A stretch of 64,000 nt of DNA from a phage. Within the stretch, counting starts at the first letter, position 1. Each line of letters begins with the position of its first letter. This document shows positions 18,421 to 55,091 of the stretch, in pieces. The stretch lies in sequence record PZ445432.1; one strand, written 5' to 3'. The position numbers and the translations under genes were made by a program. The notes beneath the pieces are model-generated. The model was not told the DNA's origin. It made no database searches and saw only the letters and a list, made by a program, of their open reading frames with translations.

Positions 18421-18589
18421 TTCTGTTCCTTTCTAAGAACGTATCATACTCAACCGTATCAACATATATGACACCATAGTCATCGGATTTATAGTCCATT
18501 TCCCATAGCTCACATCGATAGCACCAACTACCATCCGCCCATACAAATATATCATCGGGATGTGTATACACAGATTTAACTATGGACAT
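18407..18589 (-). CDS. hypothetical protein
   Basis: 60-aa ORF overlapping both neighbours. Confidence 0.35.
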   Translation of the reverse strand: MSIVKSVYTHPDDIFVWADGSWCYRCELWEMDYKSDDYGVIYVDTVEYDTFLERNRNGNK

Positions 18590-19404
18590 ATTTGTTTTCC
18601 CGGCATATAAGGTCTACCCTCTAGATGAGCTTCTACACGAGCAATAAAACCAGGATCACTGAAAGCATCTACTGCACCTTTACTCCAGTAAGGAATACCA
18701 CGATCTTCCAGTTGGTACATATCACTACGAGTCATACCTTGATAGCCTGGTTTCGACGCTAGGGCACTATCATAGTAGTTAACTACCATAAGTTTCGCAG
18801 CAGTCCGATTAAGAACAGGGAATAGTTCCCAGTAGAAGTTAATTACTTGGTTAGAGCAACCAACTACAACGATCATATCTTGACTGGTAATACCATCAAA
18901 AATATTGTACATTTCTGCGTACGCTGGAGCATGCTCACCAAAAAAGATTACATTAGGTTTAACCCATTTATAATCATCTGGGTCAATAGAGTTATACCCA
19001 ACATCAATAACCCGTTTATTACTACTATTGTAGCTATCAGCTACAACAACCTCTTTTAAATATCCGTGAATGTGCAGAATATCACTATGTGGAACGCCAG
19101 CACGCTCAATAAGGTCATCAACGTTGGTAGTCAAGTTTACTACTTGACCCGGATATTTCTTATACCATTCACCAATACGCAAGTGTGCAAGATTAGGTTC
19201 AACAGTTTCTAACTCTTCACGCCGCTTGTTGTAAAACATATGGGTTTTATGATAAAAGTTACCACGAAAGGCGTGAATATTACATACTTCTTCTAGATCA
19301 TAATCATCCCACAGTGCTTTACCACTAGCAGTATCGGTACGAAAAGCTCGTACACCACTTTCAACGCTCAAACCTGCACCGCTAATAATAATTAATCTAC
19401 GCAC
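18580..19404 (-). CDS. Sir2 (sirtuin)-family NAD-dependent enzyme
   Basis: SGAGLSVESGVRAFR, TTNVDDL, HG and PNVIFFGE sirtuin motifs; no zinc-ribbon CxxC pairs seen. Confidence 0.7.
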   Translation of the reverse strand: MRRLIIISGAGLSVESGVRAFRTDTASGKALWDDYDLEEVCNIHAFRGNFYHKTHMFYNKRREELETVEPNLAHLRIGEWYKKYPGQVVNLTTNVDDLIERAGVPHSDILHIHGYLKEVVVADSYNSSNKRVIDVGYNSIDPDDYKWVKPNVIFFGEHAPAYAEMYNIFDGITSQDMIVVVGCSNQVINFYWELFPVLNRTAAKLMVVNYYDSALASKPGYQGMTRSDMYQLEDRGIPYWSKGAVDAFSDPGFIARVEAHLEGRPYMPGKQICP

Positions 19405-39120: not shown

Positions 39121-39193
39121 GGGGTGTAATCGAATTGGCATAGGTACTGTACTTAAAATTCAGGTTTTGTGGGTTCGAATCCCAGCGAGGCGT
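39121..39193 (+). tRNA. tRNA-like element (anticodon-like loop TAA; acceptor stem does not pair)
   Basis: Good T-arm (GTGGG-TTCGAAT-CCCAG) and anticodon-like hairpin CTGTA-CTTAAAA-TTCAG, but no 5'/3' acceptor pairing found; a -10 TATAAT lies upstream. Confidence 0.25.
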
Positions 39194-49658: not shown

Positions 49659-50075
49659 ATGTTTGCAGAACTATTCACTACGATGCTGCTAGGTATCTGG
49701 AAAATAAGTCTAGTAGTATTCGTTTTAATAATAGTCTTTACTATCCTTGCACTAACTACCAGAAATATCTTATTAATAAAGATTACTCATGGACTAGAGT
49801 ATATAATTATGGGTTCATTCGGCGTTTGTAAATGCAATTGCCATAGAGATACGAAATATTGTTGGTTATGGATGGAACTAGAGAATCCTATATCCATAGC
49901 TTTGGCTGTTTCATTCGGTATGATTCTTATGGCCCTTACTCTAGCATTAATACCTTTGATGTTAGCTGGGGGAGTTACAGCGTATTTCACCCTTTTATCC
50001 CCGATACTTATGTACTCAATTTACCCAATAACTATGTATCTAGTTAGGAAAAGATTTATACATGCAGTAGATTAA
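49659..50075 (+). CDS. hypothetical multi-pass membrane protein
   Basis: 138-aa ORF with three or four hydrophobic helices; RBS AGGAGA. Confidence 0.5.
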   Translation: MFAELFTTMLLGIWKISLVVFVLIIVFTILALTTRNILLIKITHGLEYIIMGSFGVCKCNCHRDTKYCWLWMELENPISIALAVSFGMILMALTLALIPLMLAGGVTAYFTLLSPILMYSIYPITMYLVRKRFIHAVD

Positions 50076-50088
50076 GATAAAAAAGTAG

Positions 50089-50117
50089 TTGACTTTTAGC
50101 CCTAGTTATTATATAAT
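50089..50117 (+). promoter_or_regulatory. sigma70-like promoter (TTGACT -35)
   Basis: TTGACT, 17 nt, TATAAT. Confidence 0.5.
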
Positions 50118-50150
50118 ATATACATAAATTAGTTAAGAGAGGTATATATT

Positions 50151-50558
50151 ATGTCTGATCGTTTCTATACTCAAATGGCGGAACATTATAACATGGCTCC
50201 ATATGAGTTGAACATCGCATTACGTGACCTCGATTCACCAGAGCGTAAAAAACTTGAGAAGAAGGCAGGAACTACTATGTCTAAAGGCAAAAAGTTAACT
50301 CGTCTTGATCTTAATAAAATTTTAACTGAACTTTTGGGTACTGATATTGAAGGTGCTAAATTACCGCTTCTTGTACTAGAGACTATGATTAAAAAGGTCA
50401 AAAATAAAGAATATAAGAAGGTAGAAGTCCCAGAAGGCAGATTAAAGGCTCCTTATCAGGAAGCATTAACCGAGTGTTTGGGTGTAAATCTTGATCTGAG
50501 CACCGCAACCGTAAAAACTATGAAAAACTTCTTAGAGGCCATTAATAACTATGAGTAA
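50151..50558 (+). CDS. hypothetical protein
   Basis: 135-aa ORF after a promoter-leader cassette. Confidence 0.5.
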   Translation: MSDRFYTQMAEHYNMAPYELNIALRDLDSPERKKLEKKAGTTMSKGKKLTRLDLNKILTELLGTDIEGAKLPLLVLETMIKKVKNKEYKKVEVPEGRLKAPYQEALTECLGVNLDLSTATVKTMKNFLEAINNYE

Positions 50559-50841
50559 ATTAGTATATCTATTAAAAGGTTCCACGTGTCGTCCTTGTGC
50601 TCTTTTCGAGCCAGTATTTGATAAAGTAGTCAATGAGTATAATTTGGAAGTCCATAAAGAGACTGATAATACAGAATTAATGCAGAAATTTGGCGTACGC
50701 CAAGTTCCTGTAGTAGTTCTGGCGGATCGCTTACCTAATGGTCGAGTAGAAGCTAATCATATTTTGATTGGACGTCAGCTTCGTAAAGAAACTATGCACG
50801 AAGCTATTAAAAATTTCCTGGATGATAATCCAGAAGGTTAA
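50551..50841 (+). CDS. thioredoxin/glutaredoxin-like protein
   Basis: CRPC (CxxC) motif near the N-terminus of a 96-aa ORF. Confidence 0.45.
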   Translation: MSKLVYLLKGSTCRPCALFEPVFDKVVNEYNLEVHKETDNTELMQKFGVRQVPVVVLADRLPNGRVEANHILIGRQLRKETMHEAIKNFLDDNPEG

Positions 50842-50846
50842 TAAAC

Positions 50847-50880
50847 CAAGCCTGATCTTAGCGGATCAGGCTTTTATTTT
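50847..50880 (+). terminator. rho-independent terminator
   Basis: AAGCCTGATC-TTAGCG-GATCAGGCTT hairpin followed by TTATTTT. Confidence 0.6.
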
Positions 50881-50968
50881 ACTTGCTTTTTGCTAAAAAT
50901 TTTGGTATAATACTTATATAAATTGATAAGAAGGCTATCTACGCACTACAAAAAATAGGAGTATTCCA

Positions 50969-51346
50969 ATGAACTATGCATATCTAATTATTAATAATAA
51001 CGTAGTTTGTGGTACTCGCGCTGTTGAGATGGGTATTACAGAAGAAGAGTATAAGTCACTTCCAGAAAAGGAACAACAATATTATGTTGAAGAAGCTGCT
51101 TGGGAGTATGCTGAGGTTTATCCCGAACAACGTGAAGATCGCGTTACTATTGTTGTTTCTTTGGGGCTGGTTGGCTGTGATACCGAAGTTGATACAGACC
51201 TAGAGACTTTAGAGGAGTGGGAAGAGTTAGATATTTCAGCTAAAAACTCCTTAATCCGTGAAGCCTTTTGGGAAGCTGTAGATTGCCACGTAGTATTTGA
51301 GCCTAATGATGAAGAGGCTGAAAAACATACTAACCATTGGAGATAA
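50969..51346 (+). CDS. hypothetical acidic protein
   Basis: 125-aa ORF with RBS AGGAG. Confidence 0.45.
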   Translation: MNYAYLIINNNVVCGTRAVEMGITEEEYKSLPEKEQQYYVEEAAWEYAEVYPEQREDRVTIVVSLGLVGCDTEVDTDLETLEEWEELDISAKNSLIREAFWEAVDCHVVFEPNDEEAEKHTNHWR

Positions 51347-51350
51347 TTAA

Positions 51351-51596
51351 ATGTTAGCAGAGCGAGCAAAACGTTTAGCTAGGGTTAATAGAGCTGCTCT
51401 TCTCAAGAGCAGGAAGAAATCATATAAGTATGTTAAAAGACGGATTATAGCTTCTGTAGAGGCTGGAGGTTCTTATGTGCAGTTTAACCGTGACGAAATT
51501 AGTTATGAAGCTATAAAAGCCCTCAATAAAGATGGTTATACTCTCAAACTATCTAATGAGTATGGCACAACTATTTTAACTGTTATTTGGGAATAA
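51351..51596 (+). CDS. hypothetical protein
   Basis: 81-aa ORF with RBS GGAGA. Confidence 0.45.
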   Translation: MLAERAKRLARVNRAALLKSRKKSYKYVKRRIIASVEAGGSYVQFNRDEISYEAIKALNKDGYTLKLSNEYGTTILTVIWE

Positions 51597-51598
51597 TT

Positions 51599-52450
51599 AT
51601 GAAAAAAGAATTTAATGTACATAAAACTCTAGTAGTGCCAGATGATGCCAACTTGTTTTTCGTTGGTGATATTCATGGGTGCAACGATTTGCTAGAAGAT
51701 GCACTACAATTAGCTGGCTATAACGGCAAGAAAGATTGCGTTGTATGCGTAGGGGATTTAATTGACCGAGGCACGCAGAACCTACAAGTTTTAGCCAAAT
51801 TCCTGTATAATCCACGCTTTATCAGTGTCCGTGGTAATCATGACCAATTTATGATTGTGGGAGATTGGGCTAACTGGATGTATAACGGTGGTATGTGGGC
51901 TATGAATGAACTAGATGCAGATACCATTAAAAATATTGCCGAAGACATGGCTGAAAAAATGCCAGTATTCCTAACTGTTAAACATCGTGGCAAGAAGTAT
52001 GGTGTTGTTCACGGTGCGGTTCCCTACAGGCATAAAGGGGATAATAACATATCTAAAATCCCAAATTGGGACACTCTTATTCTGGAGGCAGAGCAGGCCA
52101 AAGGGCTTGATTTAGCAGATATTATAGACGATGCTCTATGGGATAGGGATGTGATCCAAGATGTATTTTCCCATATGTCTGAGGATGCTGACCACCCGTA
52201 TTTTCAAAGATATGCTGGACTTCCAGAAAACTTAATTAATCACATTCCTAAGGTAGAAGGAGTAGAATTCGTATTTCACGGGCATACTGGAGTTCCTTAC
52301 CCAATATTATATAAGAACCGTGTCTATCTTGATACTGGCGGTGTTTTCAACGGGCAGTTGACGGTTGCGCAGGTTAATGATGAAACTGGCAAAATCACCA
52401 CATTTACCACAGACAAAAATGATAGCTGCGGTGTACAGAGGGTTCTTTAA
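51599..52450 (+). CDS. PPP-family Ser/Thr protein phosphatase (lambda-PPase-like)
   Basis: GDIHG, GDLIDRG and GNHD metallophosphatase motifs; ATG directly after the upstream stop. Confidence 0.75.
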   Translation: MKKEFNVHKTLVVPDDANLFFVGDIHGCNDLLEDALQLAGYNGKKDCVVCVGDLIDRGTQNLQVLAKFLYNPRFISVRGNHDQFMIVGDWANWMYNGGMWAMNELDADTIKNIAEDMAEKMPVFLTVKHRGKKYGVVHGAVPYRHKGDNNISKIPNWDTLILEAEQAKGLDLADIIDDALWDRDVIQDVFSHMSEDADHPYFQRYAGLPENLINHIPKVEGVEFVFHGHTGVPYPILYKNRVYLDTGGVFNGQLTVAQVNDETGKITTFTTDKNDSCGVQRVL

Positions 52451-52737
52451 TGAATGATAGAATGAAAGAAGTACAAGAAGAGTTACGAGCAATGCGTATT
52501 GATGCCCTTCGTTGGAGGGCATTAGTTAATGCTTTCGTAAAAGGAGATACCGGAGTAATATATTCTGGAATAGCAGTCAATTTTTGTTTTAATTCTCCTG
52601 CTGAAATAGAGATAGAAACAAGGCTTACTACCTTCCTTAATGAGGTAGACCTTAAGGAAGGAGAGACTCCCGAGGAGTTTAAAACTAGAGTATTAACTAC
52701 CTGGGTTGATAATTTAATACAAAAAAGGAGTAAGTGA
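52450..52737 (+). CDS. hypothetical protein
   Basis: 95-aa ORF. Confidence 0.4.
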   Translation: MNDRMKEVQEELRAMRIDALRWRALVNAFVKGDTGVIYSGIAVNFCFNSPAEIEIETRLTTFLNEVDLKEGETPEEFKTRVLTTWVDNLIQKRSK

Positions 52738-53327
52738 TGAGGGTTAAATTCTGGTCAGACTTGCACTTAGACCACCCTGGAGCACTACGTTTCCGTCCGT
52801 GGTTTAAGAACATGAAAGAGCACGATGAGTATATTCTAGATACTTTGTCCAAGCATATTGGTAAACGAACAAAACTTATTTTGCTAGGAGATATTGCAGT
52901 AGGTCGTGAAGGTCTGGCCAAATTAAAGTCGGTTATCCACAATGTCCCTAATCAACTCATTATGGGTAATCATGATGCGGAGCGTCAAGGACTGAGTATT
53001 AGGGACTTAGCGGAAGTTTATGACGATATTCAAGCTCTAGGCAAACAGACTGGAGGTGGCAAAAAGTTTTGGCTATCTCATTGCCCTTTGCACCCCAATG
53101 AGCTTCGGGGCAAATTAAATATTCACGGACACGTACATGCTACTTCTATACGTGACCCTCGTTACATCAATGTCTCATTTGAAATGAGCAAAACTCCTAT
53201 TCCTCTAGAAGATATTGTATCAGGTAAGTTTACTAGCTATGATAGAGTAGTTAATTGTACTACTGGCGAAGTATTACAAATAGGGGAAGATGTAGCTGCT
53301 GTATTACGTGGCGATATAAATGTCTAA
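52737..53327 (+). CDS. calcineurin-like metallophosphoesterase
   Basis: SDLHLD, GD, GNHD and HGHVH motifs; ATG 6 nt after AAGGAG. Confidence 0.6.
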   Translation: MRVKFWSDLHLDHPGALRFRPWFKNMKEHDEYILDTLSKHIGKRTKLILLGDIAVGREGLAKLKSVIHNVPNQLIMGNHDAERQGLSIRDLAEVYDDIQALGKQTGGGKKFWLSHCPLHPNELRGKLNIHGHVHATSIRDPRYINVSFEMSKTPIPLEDIVSGKFTSYDRVVNCTTGEVLQIGEDVAAVLRGDINV

Positions 53328-53435
53328 GTATATAGCTGGGGCTATAATTAAACGAGTCATACAAGCAGTAGCAATACTTATAATCATTTGTATTGCTATT
53401 GGTACAGGACTAGGCATTTTAATTAAAAGTTTTAT

Positions 53436-53464
53436 TTGCTAAAATGCCTAAGTTTCTGTATAAT
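53436..53464 (+). promoter_or_regulatory. sigma70-like promoter
   Basis: TTGCTA, 17 nt, TATAAT. Confidence 0.5.
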
Positions 53465-53494
53465 TACTTTATAAATTGATGAGAGGGAAACAAA

Positions 53495-53926
53495 ATGAAC
53501 AAAGTAGATAAAGCTCTAGTTTTTGCAGCAGCAGATAAGTTTGAACAAGTTAAAGCTACTTTCCGAACCCTGTTCCAGTCTTACGTTCAGGATAAGTCTA
53601 ATCCTATTTCTGAACGCTTGATGGTTTGGGAGTGTCATGCTTGCAATGCCTTGCTAATTGCTGATTACCGTAGTGATATAGATAAAGATCTTTGTGAAAT
53701 CCTTATCCCCGAGGAAGCAGAACGTTATCAGTTAATCTCTTTTCAAGATTTAGCAGAACAGATCATCCCTGATGATCTTTGGGACAAGTATTATGGTGAT
53801 CCTGAAGACGAAGGAATGACTCCAGAAGCATGTATTGAACTGATCTGCAAAGATCATCCTGAAATTGCAGAAAAATTTGAGAAAGTTTTTGTTTCTGAGT
53901 TCTCCGGTGTTGTTAACGATTGGTAA
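53495..53926 (+). CDS. hypothetical protein
   Basis: 143-aa ORF after a promoter-leader cassette. Confidence 0.5.
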   Translation: MNKVDKALVFAAADKFEQVKATFRTLFQSYVQDKSNPISERLMVWECHACNALLIADYRSDIDKDLCEILIPEEAERYQLISFQDLAEQIIPDDLWDKYYGDPEDEGMTPEACIELICKDHPEIAEKFEKVFVSEFSGVVNDW

Positions 53927-54004
53927 GTAATTAAAAAATTCAGTTGCTTCAAGCCTTAAAATTCTGTATAATAAGTTCATAAATTAATGAGAGAGGAAAT
54001 TCTA

Positions 54005-54283
54005 ATGGAAAACATGACTAAAGACTTCGACGCCTCTAACCTTACCAAGACTGAAATGGCCAATGTATTAGCAATTCTCCTCGACATGCAAGGATTTGAG
54101 GGGCAACTGATGAAAATGTCTATTCCGGCGATGAAGAAGATGTATGATTCTCTTAACAAGAACGCCATGGCCTTTAACTTAGCAAAACAAGAGGCACGCT
54201 TTGCTAAGGAGCACCAAGCAGTGGCAGAACGCCGAGCAGCTAGCTTTGAGCGTGAAGTTAAGCAATTAAAGAAAAAATGCTAA
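54005..54283 (+). CDS. hypothetical protein
   Basis: Start moved to the ATG after the GAGAGG leader; the track's ATG at 53987 lies inside the conserved leader. Confidence 0.45.
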   Translation: MENMTKDFDASNLTKTEMANVLAILLDMQGFEGQLMKMSIPAMKKMYDSLNKNAMAFNLAKQEARFAKEHQAVAERRAASFEREVKQLKKKC

Positions 54284-54813
54284 CACAAGAAAGATTAAAA
54301 GAGCTATTTGAATACCGCCCGGAAACGGGCGAGTTTATTAGATTAGTAAGTATAGGTAATCAAAAAGCTGGTAGTACTGCTGGCTGTCTAAGAAAGACTG
54401 GGTATATAGAAATAAGAGTAGATAAAGTAGGCTACAAAGCACATCGACTAGCCTTCCTCTATATGGAAGGTTATATTCCCGAAGTAATAGACCACGTAAA
54501 TCGTATACGGAGTGATAATAGGTGGGCTAACCTTAGAGAATCTAATAACCAAGAAAATTCTAGAAATAGAACAGCAAGGAGCAAATCATGGTATTTGGGA
54601 ATCTTTTGGCATAAACAAAAGCAAAAATGGGAAGTAAGGGTTGTAGATTCGTACAAAAAGTTAGTGCATGGTGGGTATTTTGATTTTCTAGATCTAGAAT
54701 TAGCGGTTCAAAGAGCTAATGAACTACGTTTAGAACTACATGGGCCTAACGCTGTTATAGAAACTTTTGATCATACAAAACCCTTACCTACTTTAGAGGA
54801 ATTAAATAAATGA
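54277..54813 (+). CDS. HNH homing endonuclease
   Basis: IDHVNRIRSDNRWANLRESNNQENS HNH motif. Confidence 0.75.
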   Translation: MLTQERLKELFEYRPETGEFIRLVSIGNQKAGSTAGCLRKTGYIEIRVDKVGYKAHRLAFLYMEGYIPEVIDHVNRIRSDNRWANLRESNNQENSRNRTARSKSWYLGIFWHKQKQKWEVRVVDSYKKLVHGGYFDFLDLELAVQRANELRLELHGPNAVIETFDHTKPLPTLEELNK

Positions 54814-55091
54814 TTACAGAAATTCTTATTGGGTTACTAGTTCTTACTACACTAGTAGCGATTGGCGGAGTTATTGGGATTGTGAATGCACGAAAAAACA
54901 TGGAAAATATGCTCATTACTAATGATGGGCTACACCACCGCTTGCTAGAGCAAGAGCAGGATATTGAACTAGCACAGAGACGCTCAGATATTCTTAAAGA
55001 AAAATTAAATAATATAGAAGCAATAGTTGGGAATAATAAATTACCTGCTAAAGTAATGCGTACACAGATAATTACGGAGATTAAAAAATGA
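54810..55091 (+). CDS. hypothetical membrane protein
   Basis: 93-aa ORF with an N-terminal transmembrane helix. Confidence 0.4.
   Translation: MITEILIGLLVLTTLVAIGGVIGIVNARKNMENMLITNDGLHHRLLEQEQDIELAQRRSDILKEKLNNIEAIVGNNKLPAKVMRTQIITEIKK

Follow-up and report, generated by a model that had tools for sequence, protein, structure and literature searches.

Why should a phage carry, almost side by side, the genes of two metallophosphoesterases that scarcely resemble each other, and what might the two enzymes do together? The question is raised by positions 51599-53327 of a phage DNA stretch of 64,000 nucleotides (nt; sequence record PZ445432.1; hereafter, the window), in which an inspection of the letters alone (hereafter, the sequence-only reading) noticed two different metallophosphatases ~300 bp apart with a small open reading frame (ORF) between them. 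Both observations are accurate. The three genes, all on the + strand, are bas33_0149 (51599-52450, 283 amino acids (aa); hereafter, PP1), bas33_0150 (52450-52737, 95 aa) and bas33_0151 (52737-53327, 196 aa counted from the annotated ATG, with an in-frame GTG at 52734; hereafter, MPE2), and 286 bp separate the stop of PP1 from the start of MPE2. Positions 50000-55000 of the window match, at 100% identity, Escherichia phage HildyBeyeler (NC_105119.1/MZ501074.1), the T5-like Tequintavirus that is also known as BASEL phage Bas33. Its two enzymes are the orthologues of T5.035 and T5.034, a long-annotated pair, a fact that was outside the sequence-only reading. Both genes are thus already annotated and belong to known families. 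On balance, and with considerable reserve, it appears probable that the pair consists of two intact, evolutionarily distant binuclear metallophosphoesterases that are cotranscribed early in infection and act as a diesterase-monoesterase team.

Judging from its sequence, PP1 is a catalytically intact enzyme of the lambda-phosphatase/NinI clade that retains all metal-binding and catalytic residues. The motifs GDIHG (aa 23-27, nt 51665-51679), GDLIDRG (aa 52-58, nt 51752-51772) and GNHD (aa 79-82, nt 51833-51844) are all in place, as had been pointed out, and D24, H26, D53, D56, R57, N80, H81, H138, R183 and H229 are invariant among 50 homologues. Among these residues, H138, R183 and H229 are the counterparts of His139, Arg162 and His186 of lambda phosphatase; H138 (in VVHG) and H229 (in HGHT) lie inside segments aligned with 1g5b, and the equivalence of R183 with Arg162 rests on the conserved WDR motif because this segment is outside the phmmer alignment. 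The lambda-type assignment made by the sequence-only reading agrees with the database matches to lambda phosphatase (PDB 1G5B; phmmer E 2.6e-30), Pfam Metallophos (3.3e-15) and PHROG 246, 'NinI-like serine-threonine phosphatase' (4.8e-89), and the nearest fold of the PP1 structure model is predicted to be that of lambda phosphatase. The ~60 residues by which PP1 exceeds the lambda enzyme are due to helical insertions (~70 aa) that follow the histidine of motif IV and the arginine of the conserved WDR motif. The best NCBIfam matches of PP1 are the Escherichia coli protein phosphatases PrpA and PrpB (NF008516 and NF007425), but its scores, 95.6 bits (cut-off 326) and 78.1 bits (cut-off 332), respectively, place PP1 in the same clade and not among the equivalogs of either protein.

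MPE2, which by its residues likewise appears to be catalytically intact, belongs to a different clade, that of the Aquifex aeolicus protein aq_1665 (COG4186) and Gp66 of phage D29. The motifs quoted for it, SDLHLD (aa 7-12, nt 52755-52772), GNHD (aa 77-80, nt 52965-52976) and HGHVH (aa 130-134, nt 53124-53138), are again all present; D8, H10, D52, N78, H79, H115, H130 and H132 are invariant among 46 homologues, with the binuclear-site set (DxH, GD, GNH, H and GHxH) being complete, and the clade signatures WLSHxPxHPxELRG and RYINV are found as well. The protein matches PHROG 547, 'phosphoesterase' (4.4e-57). The family profile retrieves the aq_1665 structure (PDB 1XM7) with E 4.6e-21, followed by Mre11/SbcD at ~6e-4, and the structure model similarly suggests that both fold and profile are nearest to aq_1665. 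Comparison of the MPE2 profile with D29 Gp66 yields an hhalign probability of 99.4% (E 3.2e-21, 30% identity over 156 columns; tblastn E 8e-5). The sequence-only reading had proposed a nucleotide or cyclic-nucleotide phosphodiesterase for this second enzyme; the homology to Gp66 favors a putative nucleotide phosphodiesterase, whereas a class III cyclic nucleoside monophosphate (cNMP) phosphodiesterase of the CpdA/Icc/Rv0805 type was rejected, no specific similarity to these proteins being detectable past the superfamily fold. An identification with PdeM, the Pseudomonas MPE single-stranded DNA endonuclease (TIGR04123), was rejected too, as the score is under the curated cut-off and this is not the nearest fold.

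The MPE2 family is very large, with 15,045 cluster representatives at E <= 1e-10 and 1,392 phage records, and extends to staphylococcal, listerial, T4-like and Vi1-like phages and to mycobacteriophages. Some of its members (P0233 and P0266, and also P0248, P0290 and P0340; 466-514 aa) are interrupted by insertions of ~250-330 aa. The insertions begin with Cys, end with Gly-Asn followed by Cys, and are placed precisely behind the HGH of motif V or the GNH of motif III; they are intein-like in appearance, although no intein domain is detected in them by Pfam at E 0.001. Inteins located at catalytic motifs are characteristic of conserved proteins of replication and nucleotide metabolism.

PP1 and MPE2 are evolutionarily distant from each other rather than paralogous duplicates. 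Their BLASTP alignment is limited to 45 residues near motifs II-III (E 0.003), and each structure model scores only ~9 against the clade of the other protein; the expectation that the two are unlikely to be redundant is thus confirmed in the sense that they are non-duplicates. In the HildyBeyeler record, both genes carry the annotation 'serine/threonine phosphatase', a label that is unsupported in the case of MPE2.

The three genes are transcribed during infection. In the published RNA-seq data for Bas33 at 20 min, there are ~12,000 reads for PP1, ~1,100 for bas33_0150 and ~5,000 for MPE2, and when the second-step DNA transfer is blocked, the reads for these genes drop 17-24-fold, in agreement with the expectation for early genes. 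The stop and start codons of consecutive genes overlap (TAATG and TGATG), and early cotranscription with translational coupling of PP1 and MPE2 is part of the explanation that we favor.

The pairing recurs outside a single phage lineage. Our survey covered 80 viral contigs with an MPE2 homologue, of which ~63 loci are from phages other than T5-likes and represent 39 lineages at 70% identity. All T5-likes in this set have a PP1/MPE2-type pair. Elsewhere, a gene resembling lambda phosphatase (lambda-PP-like) lies within 6 kb of the MPE2 homologue in four of the ~63 loci, being adjacent in two (L028 and L031) and with a varying gene order, and these four contigs have almost nothing else in common with T5. 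The two types of domains are also found in a single polypeptide, P0282 (431 aa), the N-terminal half of which resembles MPE2 and the C-terminal half of which is lambda-PP-like (BLASTP E 1e-20 to PP1). P0282 belongs to a cluster of 10 members from several samples; the phage and plasmid collections yielded no true fusion of this kind. A search with the fusion protein retrieves ~417 phage records in which the two domains map to one site on the same strand, and these are essentially T5-likes and the Aeromonas Lahexavirus. Thus, the pairing goes beyond chance, and there is moderate evidence that the two enzyme types work together.

The fusion gene resides in a back-to-back metallophosphoesterase island on the metagenomic contigs L094 (1-8949) and L096 (1-13010; Logan SRR6924042 and SRR25779739). 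The island includes eight metallophosphoesterase domains (three lambda-PP-like, two MPE2-like and three of a third clade); it is adjoined by a gene for a DUF1173 protein, with a WYL-WCX regulator and a pair of a helix-turn-helix protein and a HipA-type kinase encoded within 10 kb, and nothing in the plasmid collection matches L094. In Aeromonas phage LAh_9 (L003, 1-3516), the MPE2 homologue follows the genes for ribose-phosphate pyrophosphokinase and nicotinate phosphoribosyltransferase (NAD salvage), and the genes for a lambda-type phosphatase and a primase/helicase are located directly downstream. At seven loci from five lineages (among L023-L084), a further metallophosphoesterase of ~268 aa is encoded within 4 kb of the MPE2 homologue; it is neither of the lambda type nor of the MPE2 type and has no Pfam match at E 0.001. 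With this partner present in five lineages, pairs of unlike metallophosphoesterases recur in more than one combination. The broader notion that a lambda-type phosphatase and an aq_1665-type diesterase form a conserved two-step module that is fused in some elements and multiplied in the metagenomic island is a conjecture to which we attach very little credence.

The metagenomic island also bears on an explanation in which the two enzymes are unrelated in function and merely co-located, with PP1 removing phosphates from Ser, Thr, Tyr or His that are set by host kinases (for example, HipA-like toxins or kinase-based defences) or resetting host regulators. PP1 has the full catalytic set and the fold of lambda phosphatase, PrpA and PrpB are its closest NCBIfam models, and it is an island with three lambda-PP-like domains that has a WYL regulator and a HipA-type kinase in its vicinity. 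We nevertheless regard such a counter-kinase role as unlikely: no target of PP1 is known, its scores are far below the PrpA and PrpB equivalog cut-offs, and it has ~70 extra residues near the active-site face. The domain fusion and the repeated adjacency argue for linked rather than independent enzymes.

Under the explanation of a diesterase-monoesterase team, the side-by-side recurrence of the two types and their fusion in one protein lead us to infer sequential action, whereby PP1 and MPE2 would successively process one substrate class, from diester to monoester to free phosphate. By analogy with characterized relatives, PP1 would most likely be a Mn2+-dependent phosphomonoesterase acting on phosphoproteins that also opens 2',3'-cyclic nucleotides, in the manner of lambda phosphatase. 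MPE2 would most likely cleave phosphodiesters in nucleotides or nucleic acids, for example, 2',3'-cyclic phosphates or DNA/RNA ends, and this activity would serve the nucleic-acid metabolism of the phage. Lambda phosphatase hydrolyses bis-p-nitrophenyl phosphate and 2',3'-cNMPs, and the action of a diesterase followed by that of a monoesterase on 2',3'-cyclic phosphates has been published for this enzyme and for Pnkp (PMC2190708). D29 Gp66 is described as a 2',3'-cyclic nucleotide phosphodiesterase (Dutta 2014, PMID 25307893, as cited in PMC12287305), and the cyclic nucleotides that it hydrolyses include cAMP, according to the citing paper.

Given that lambda phosphatase and, by the same secondary account, Gp66 both open 2',3'-cyclic nucleotides (PMC2190708, PMC12287305), and that T5-likes are rich in tRNA genes, the pair could also be imagined to heal RNA. 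In this scheme, RNA ends with 2',3'-cyclic phosphates or 3'-phosphates, such as those left by anticodon nucleases and by HEPN RNases of abortive infection, would be turned into 3'-OH ends in a Pnkp-like manner, rescuing tRNAs and mRNAs. This appears quite unlikely because a search of the window's annotation and of nine unannotated or doubtfully annotated ORFs revealed neither an RNA ligase nor a polynucleotide kinase. Furthermore, Bas33 has a natural sensitivity to PARIS, a tRNA-cleaving system, and is rescued from it only when tRNA is supplied (PMC12409363), which is weak evidence against RNA end-healing inasmuch as the chemistry of AriB may differ.

A role of MPE2 in nucleic-acid metabolism, as envisaged for the diesterase-monoesterase team, is consistent with the genomic context of its homologues. 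Within 4 kb of the homologue, the 39 non-T5 lineages encode DNA polymerase A (15 lineages), a 5'-3' exonuclease/FEN (13 plus 2), SSB-like proteins (9), primase-helicase (7), dCMP deaminase (5) and PolB (3), and at least one replication gene (PolA, FEN, SSB, primase-helicase or PolB) is present in 21 of the 39. The homologue on a Motiliproteus genome contig is likewise found in a replication context.

Several points weigh against the explanation that we favor. The association with replication modules was counted without a matched control and may partly mirror the way early regions are built, and in the T5-likes themselves the pair is outside the replication module, adjoining genes for lysis, a dNMP kinase and thioredoxin. 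With only four of the ~63 non-T5 loci having both types, the pairing is not obligatory. The Pfam scores of MPE2 are slightly under the gathering thresholds (20.4 against 21.5 for Metallophos and 24.6 against 27 for Metallophos_2), so that its superfamily membership is based on the structure model and the ligand set in place of the Pfam score. The roles reported for relatives of MPE2 are disparate, namely, cNMP phosphodiesterase, DNA nuclease and recombination directionality factor, and hence function may not transfer. Finally, a single paper mentions T5.035, solely as a phylogenetic marker, and the literature has no enzyme assay of T5.034, T5.035 or the Bas33 proteins. T5 is a classic model phage, yet these two genes have no known substrate or phenotype; a substrate of the pair would give a function to a gene family that is widespread in phages (the MPE2 family, ~1,400 phage genomes).

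The locus stands out among T5-likes for its variability. Identity to the T5 counterparts is 84-98.6% for the flanking genes and 79.8% for PP1 (to T5.035), but just 52.6% for MPE2 (to T5.034), which is a divergent allele with a C-terminal tail. Two classes of MPE2 alleles cocirculate, one in Bas33, Bas31 and Bas29 (98% and 92% identity of the Bas31 and Bas29 proteins, respectively, to the Bas33 allele) and the other in T5 and Bas34 (96.5% identity of the Bas34 protein to T5.034). The spacer between the two enzyme genes (52450-52737 and its equivalents) is a hot spot for insertions. T5, Bas34 and NR01 have nothing in it, and their T5.035-type gene directly precedes the T5.034-type gene; elsewhere, it holds the 95-aa ORF (Bas33), an unrelated ORF of 122 aa (Bas31, L087), or ORFs of 122, 68 and 32 aa (Bas29, L088), the 68-aa ORF having a lipoprotein-like signal. 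The homologues of bas33_0150 (phrog_14979) are confined to T5-like phages, and scans with Pfam, NCBIfam and PADLOC matched it to nothing, so that no function can be proposed for it; in the explanation that we favor, it is a dispensable ORF in a variable spacer.

Divergence of this kind, with MPE2 evolving apart from its well-conserved flanks and variable cargo in the spacer, is typical of an arms race, and this brings up the suggestion of the sequence-only reading that the pair is relevant to host immunity based on cyclic nucleotides. MPE2, alone or with PP1, would then hydrolyse the cyclic mono- or oligonucleotide messengers of CBASS, Pycsar, Thoeris or type III CRISPR and thereby protect the phage. 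The hydrolysis of cyclic nucleotides attributed to Gp66, cAMP included, would be in line with such a role (PMC12287305, a secondary source in this respect), and Bas33 is described as broadly resistant to type I CBASS, with Bas34 resistant too and unknown anti-CBASS genes suspected by the authors. The alleles, however, do not follow the resistance. The resistant Bas34 has the T5-type MPE2 and no middle ORF, whereas Bas31 and Bas29, which are not among the T5-like phages named as resistant in the CBASS screen, have the Bas33-type allele; nothing at the locus is specifically common to Bas33 and Bas34, and the alleles were rejected as the cause of the resistance on this comparison, in which the sensitivity of Bas29 and Bas31 is taken from a general statement in the same source that close relatives are potently restricted. 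T5, with its orthologous pair, is restricted by Pycsar and is fully rescued by Apyc1, and a lysate screen for degradation of cyclic nucleotides that included T5 along with VAH1, HASG4 and EASG3, which have the Bas33-type module, is described in the text of the Pycsar study as positive only for T-even phages and SBSphiJ (PMC9117128). In addition, the MPE2 model suggests no specific structural similarity to cNMP phosphodiesterases, PADLOC produced no matches, and the genomic context of the MPE2 homologues is mainly that of DNA-replication modules, not that of anti-defence genes. A link of the pair to cyclic-nucleotide immunity is therefore unsupported and very unlikely, with most of the evidence pointing away from it.

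The transcription unit that includes the pair can be delineated from the sequence and by comparison with T5. Its probable upstream edge is a terminator-like hairpin on the + strand (50848-50873; an 11-pair stem followed by a T-run), the T5 counterpart of which is annotated as a rho-independent terminator after T5.037. The next gene, bas33_0147 (51029-51346, +, with a longer ORF from 50969), has no equivalent at this position in T5; it is an early gene that served as the early marker in reverse-transcription quantitative PCR of Bas33 (bioRxiv 10.64898/2026.01.13.699316). Its label 'putative homing endonuclease' is an apparent annotation error, the only Pfam match being DUF7167. The first conserved gene of the operon is bas33_0148 (51351-51596, +, 81 aa; phrog_7354), which is 84% identical to its orthologue T5.036, and the T5 annotation places a promoter immediately 5' of T5.036. 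The designation of this small early protein as 'major head protein' in PHROGs and in the RefSeq record of T5 seems to be another annotation error. Downstream, a hydrophobic ORF of 40 aa, bas33_0152 (53320-53442, +), overlaps the stop of MPE2; it is annotated also in Bas31, Bas29 and Bas34, but is a doubtful gene, with 0-1 RNA-seq reads against thousands for its neighbours, so that either there is no gene or it was dropped during read counting. The probable downstream edge is a Sigma-70-like promoter (53436-53464, +; TTGCTA-17-TATAAT, 10/12 matches), which starts the next unit with the T5.033 orthologue and corresponds to the annotated promoter P-F30 of T5.

Two observations concern the window as a whole. 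It is a non-contiguous slice of the deposited HildyBeyeler genome, with a junction at 39164-39184: window positions 5042-39184 correspond to 37524-71666 of NC_105119.1, and those from 39164 onward correspond to the record from 76686 onward. The missing part of the record (~71667-76685) amounts to a deletion of ~5.0 kb between 21-bp repeats that resemble a tRNA T-arm (GGTTCGAATCC); it takes out ~11 tRNA genes and breaks tRNA-Leu(taa), with no tRNA being predicted at the junction by ARAGORN. A laboratory stock of Bas33 has been reported to have a larger deletion in this region (bioRxiv 10.64898/2026.01.13.699316). Far from the pair, bas33_0055 (~18580-19404, -) is a Sir2-like gene, the product of which is 58% identical over 259 aa to the 'NAD-dependent deacetylase Sir2' of Salmonella phage SeKF_80 (Grimontviridae); apart from this gene, SeKF_80 and Bas33 have few genes in common.

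Comparison with known systems sets the pair apart from the immune-signal nucleases of phages. The possibility that PP1 or MPE2 is an enzyme of the Acb1/Apyc1 type was rejected, as both have a calcineurin-like fold and T5 is restricted by Pycsar despite its orthologous pair. The fold of Acb1 is that of a 2H phosphoesterase. Apyc1 is described as having a metallo-beta-lactamase fold, different from the calcineurin-like fold of the two Bas33 enzymes (PMC9117128). The phosphatase module of Clostridium thermocellum Pnkp (PDB 4J6O) is part of a kinase-phosphatase-ligase polypeptide, and no kinase or ligase partner was found for the Bas33 pair in the window's annotation and the nine scanned ORFs. Although aq_1665 is the nearest relative of MPE2 by fold, it is a cellular protein of a thermophile, known from structural genomics and without an assigned function, and so adds no mechanism. 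D29 Gp66 and MPE2 belong to the same family and are both small stand-alone enzymes, Gp66 being encoded in an early/replication region; they differ in that the sequences are distant, the host of D29 is from another phylum, Gp66 has longer loops, and activity is known for Gp66 only. Two Cluster A metallophosphoesterases that are described as close relatives of Gp66, and are likened to MPE2 by this description only, have diverse roles (PMC12287305): Gp48 of A10ZJ24 is an early phosphodiesterase/DNA nuclease that is required for phage DNA replication in Mycobacterium tuberculosis, whereas gp47 of Bxb1 is a recombination directionality factor that is also needed for replication and is reported to be without phosphoesterase activity. 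A further difference is that Bas33 reportedly does not degrade host DNA fast (bioRxiv 10.64898/2026.01.13.699316). For PP1, the closest characterized counterpart is lambda phosphatase (NinI, PDB 1G5B), which has 221 aa compared with 283 aa and lacks the additional helical insertions. The closest counterpart of the pair as a whole is in T5, where the genes abut without a middle ORF and the product of T5.034 (173 aa) is 23 aa shorter than MPE2 at the C-terminus; the orthologues concerned, the NinI-like Ser/Thr phosphatase T5.035 ('orf5c') and the phosphoesterase T5.034, likewise follow T5.036 in the early operon, with strand and gene order unchanged.

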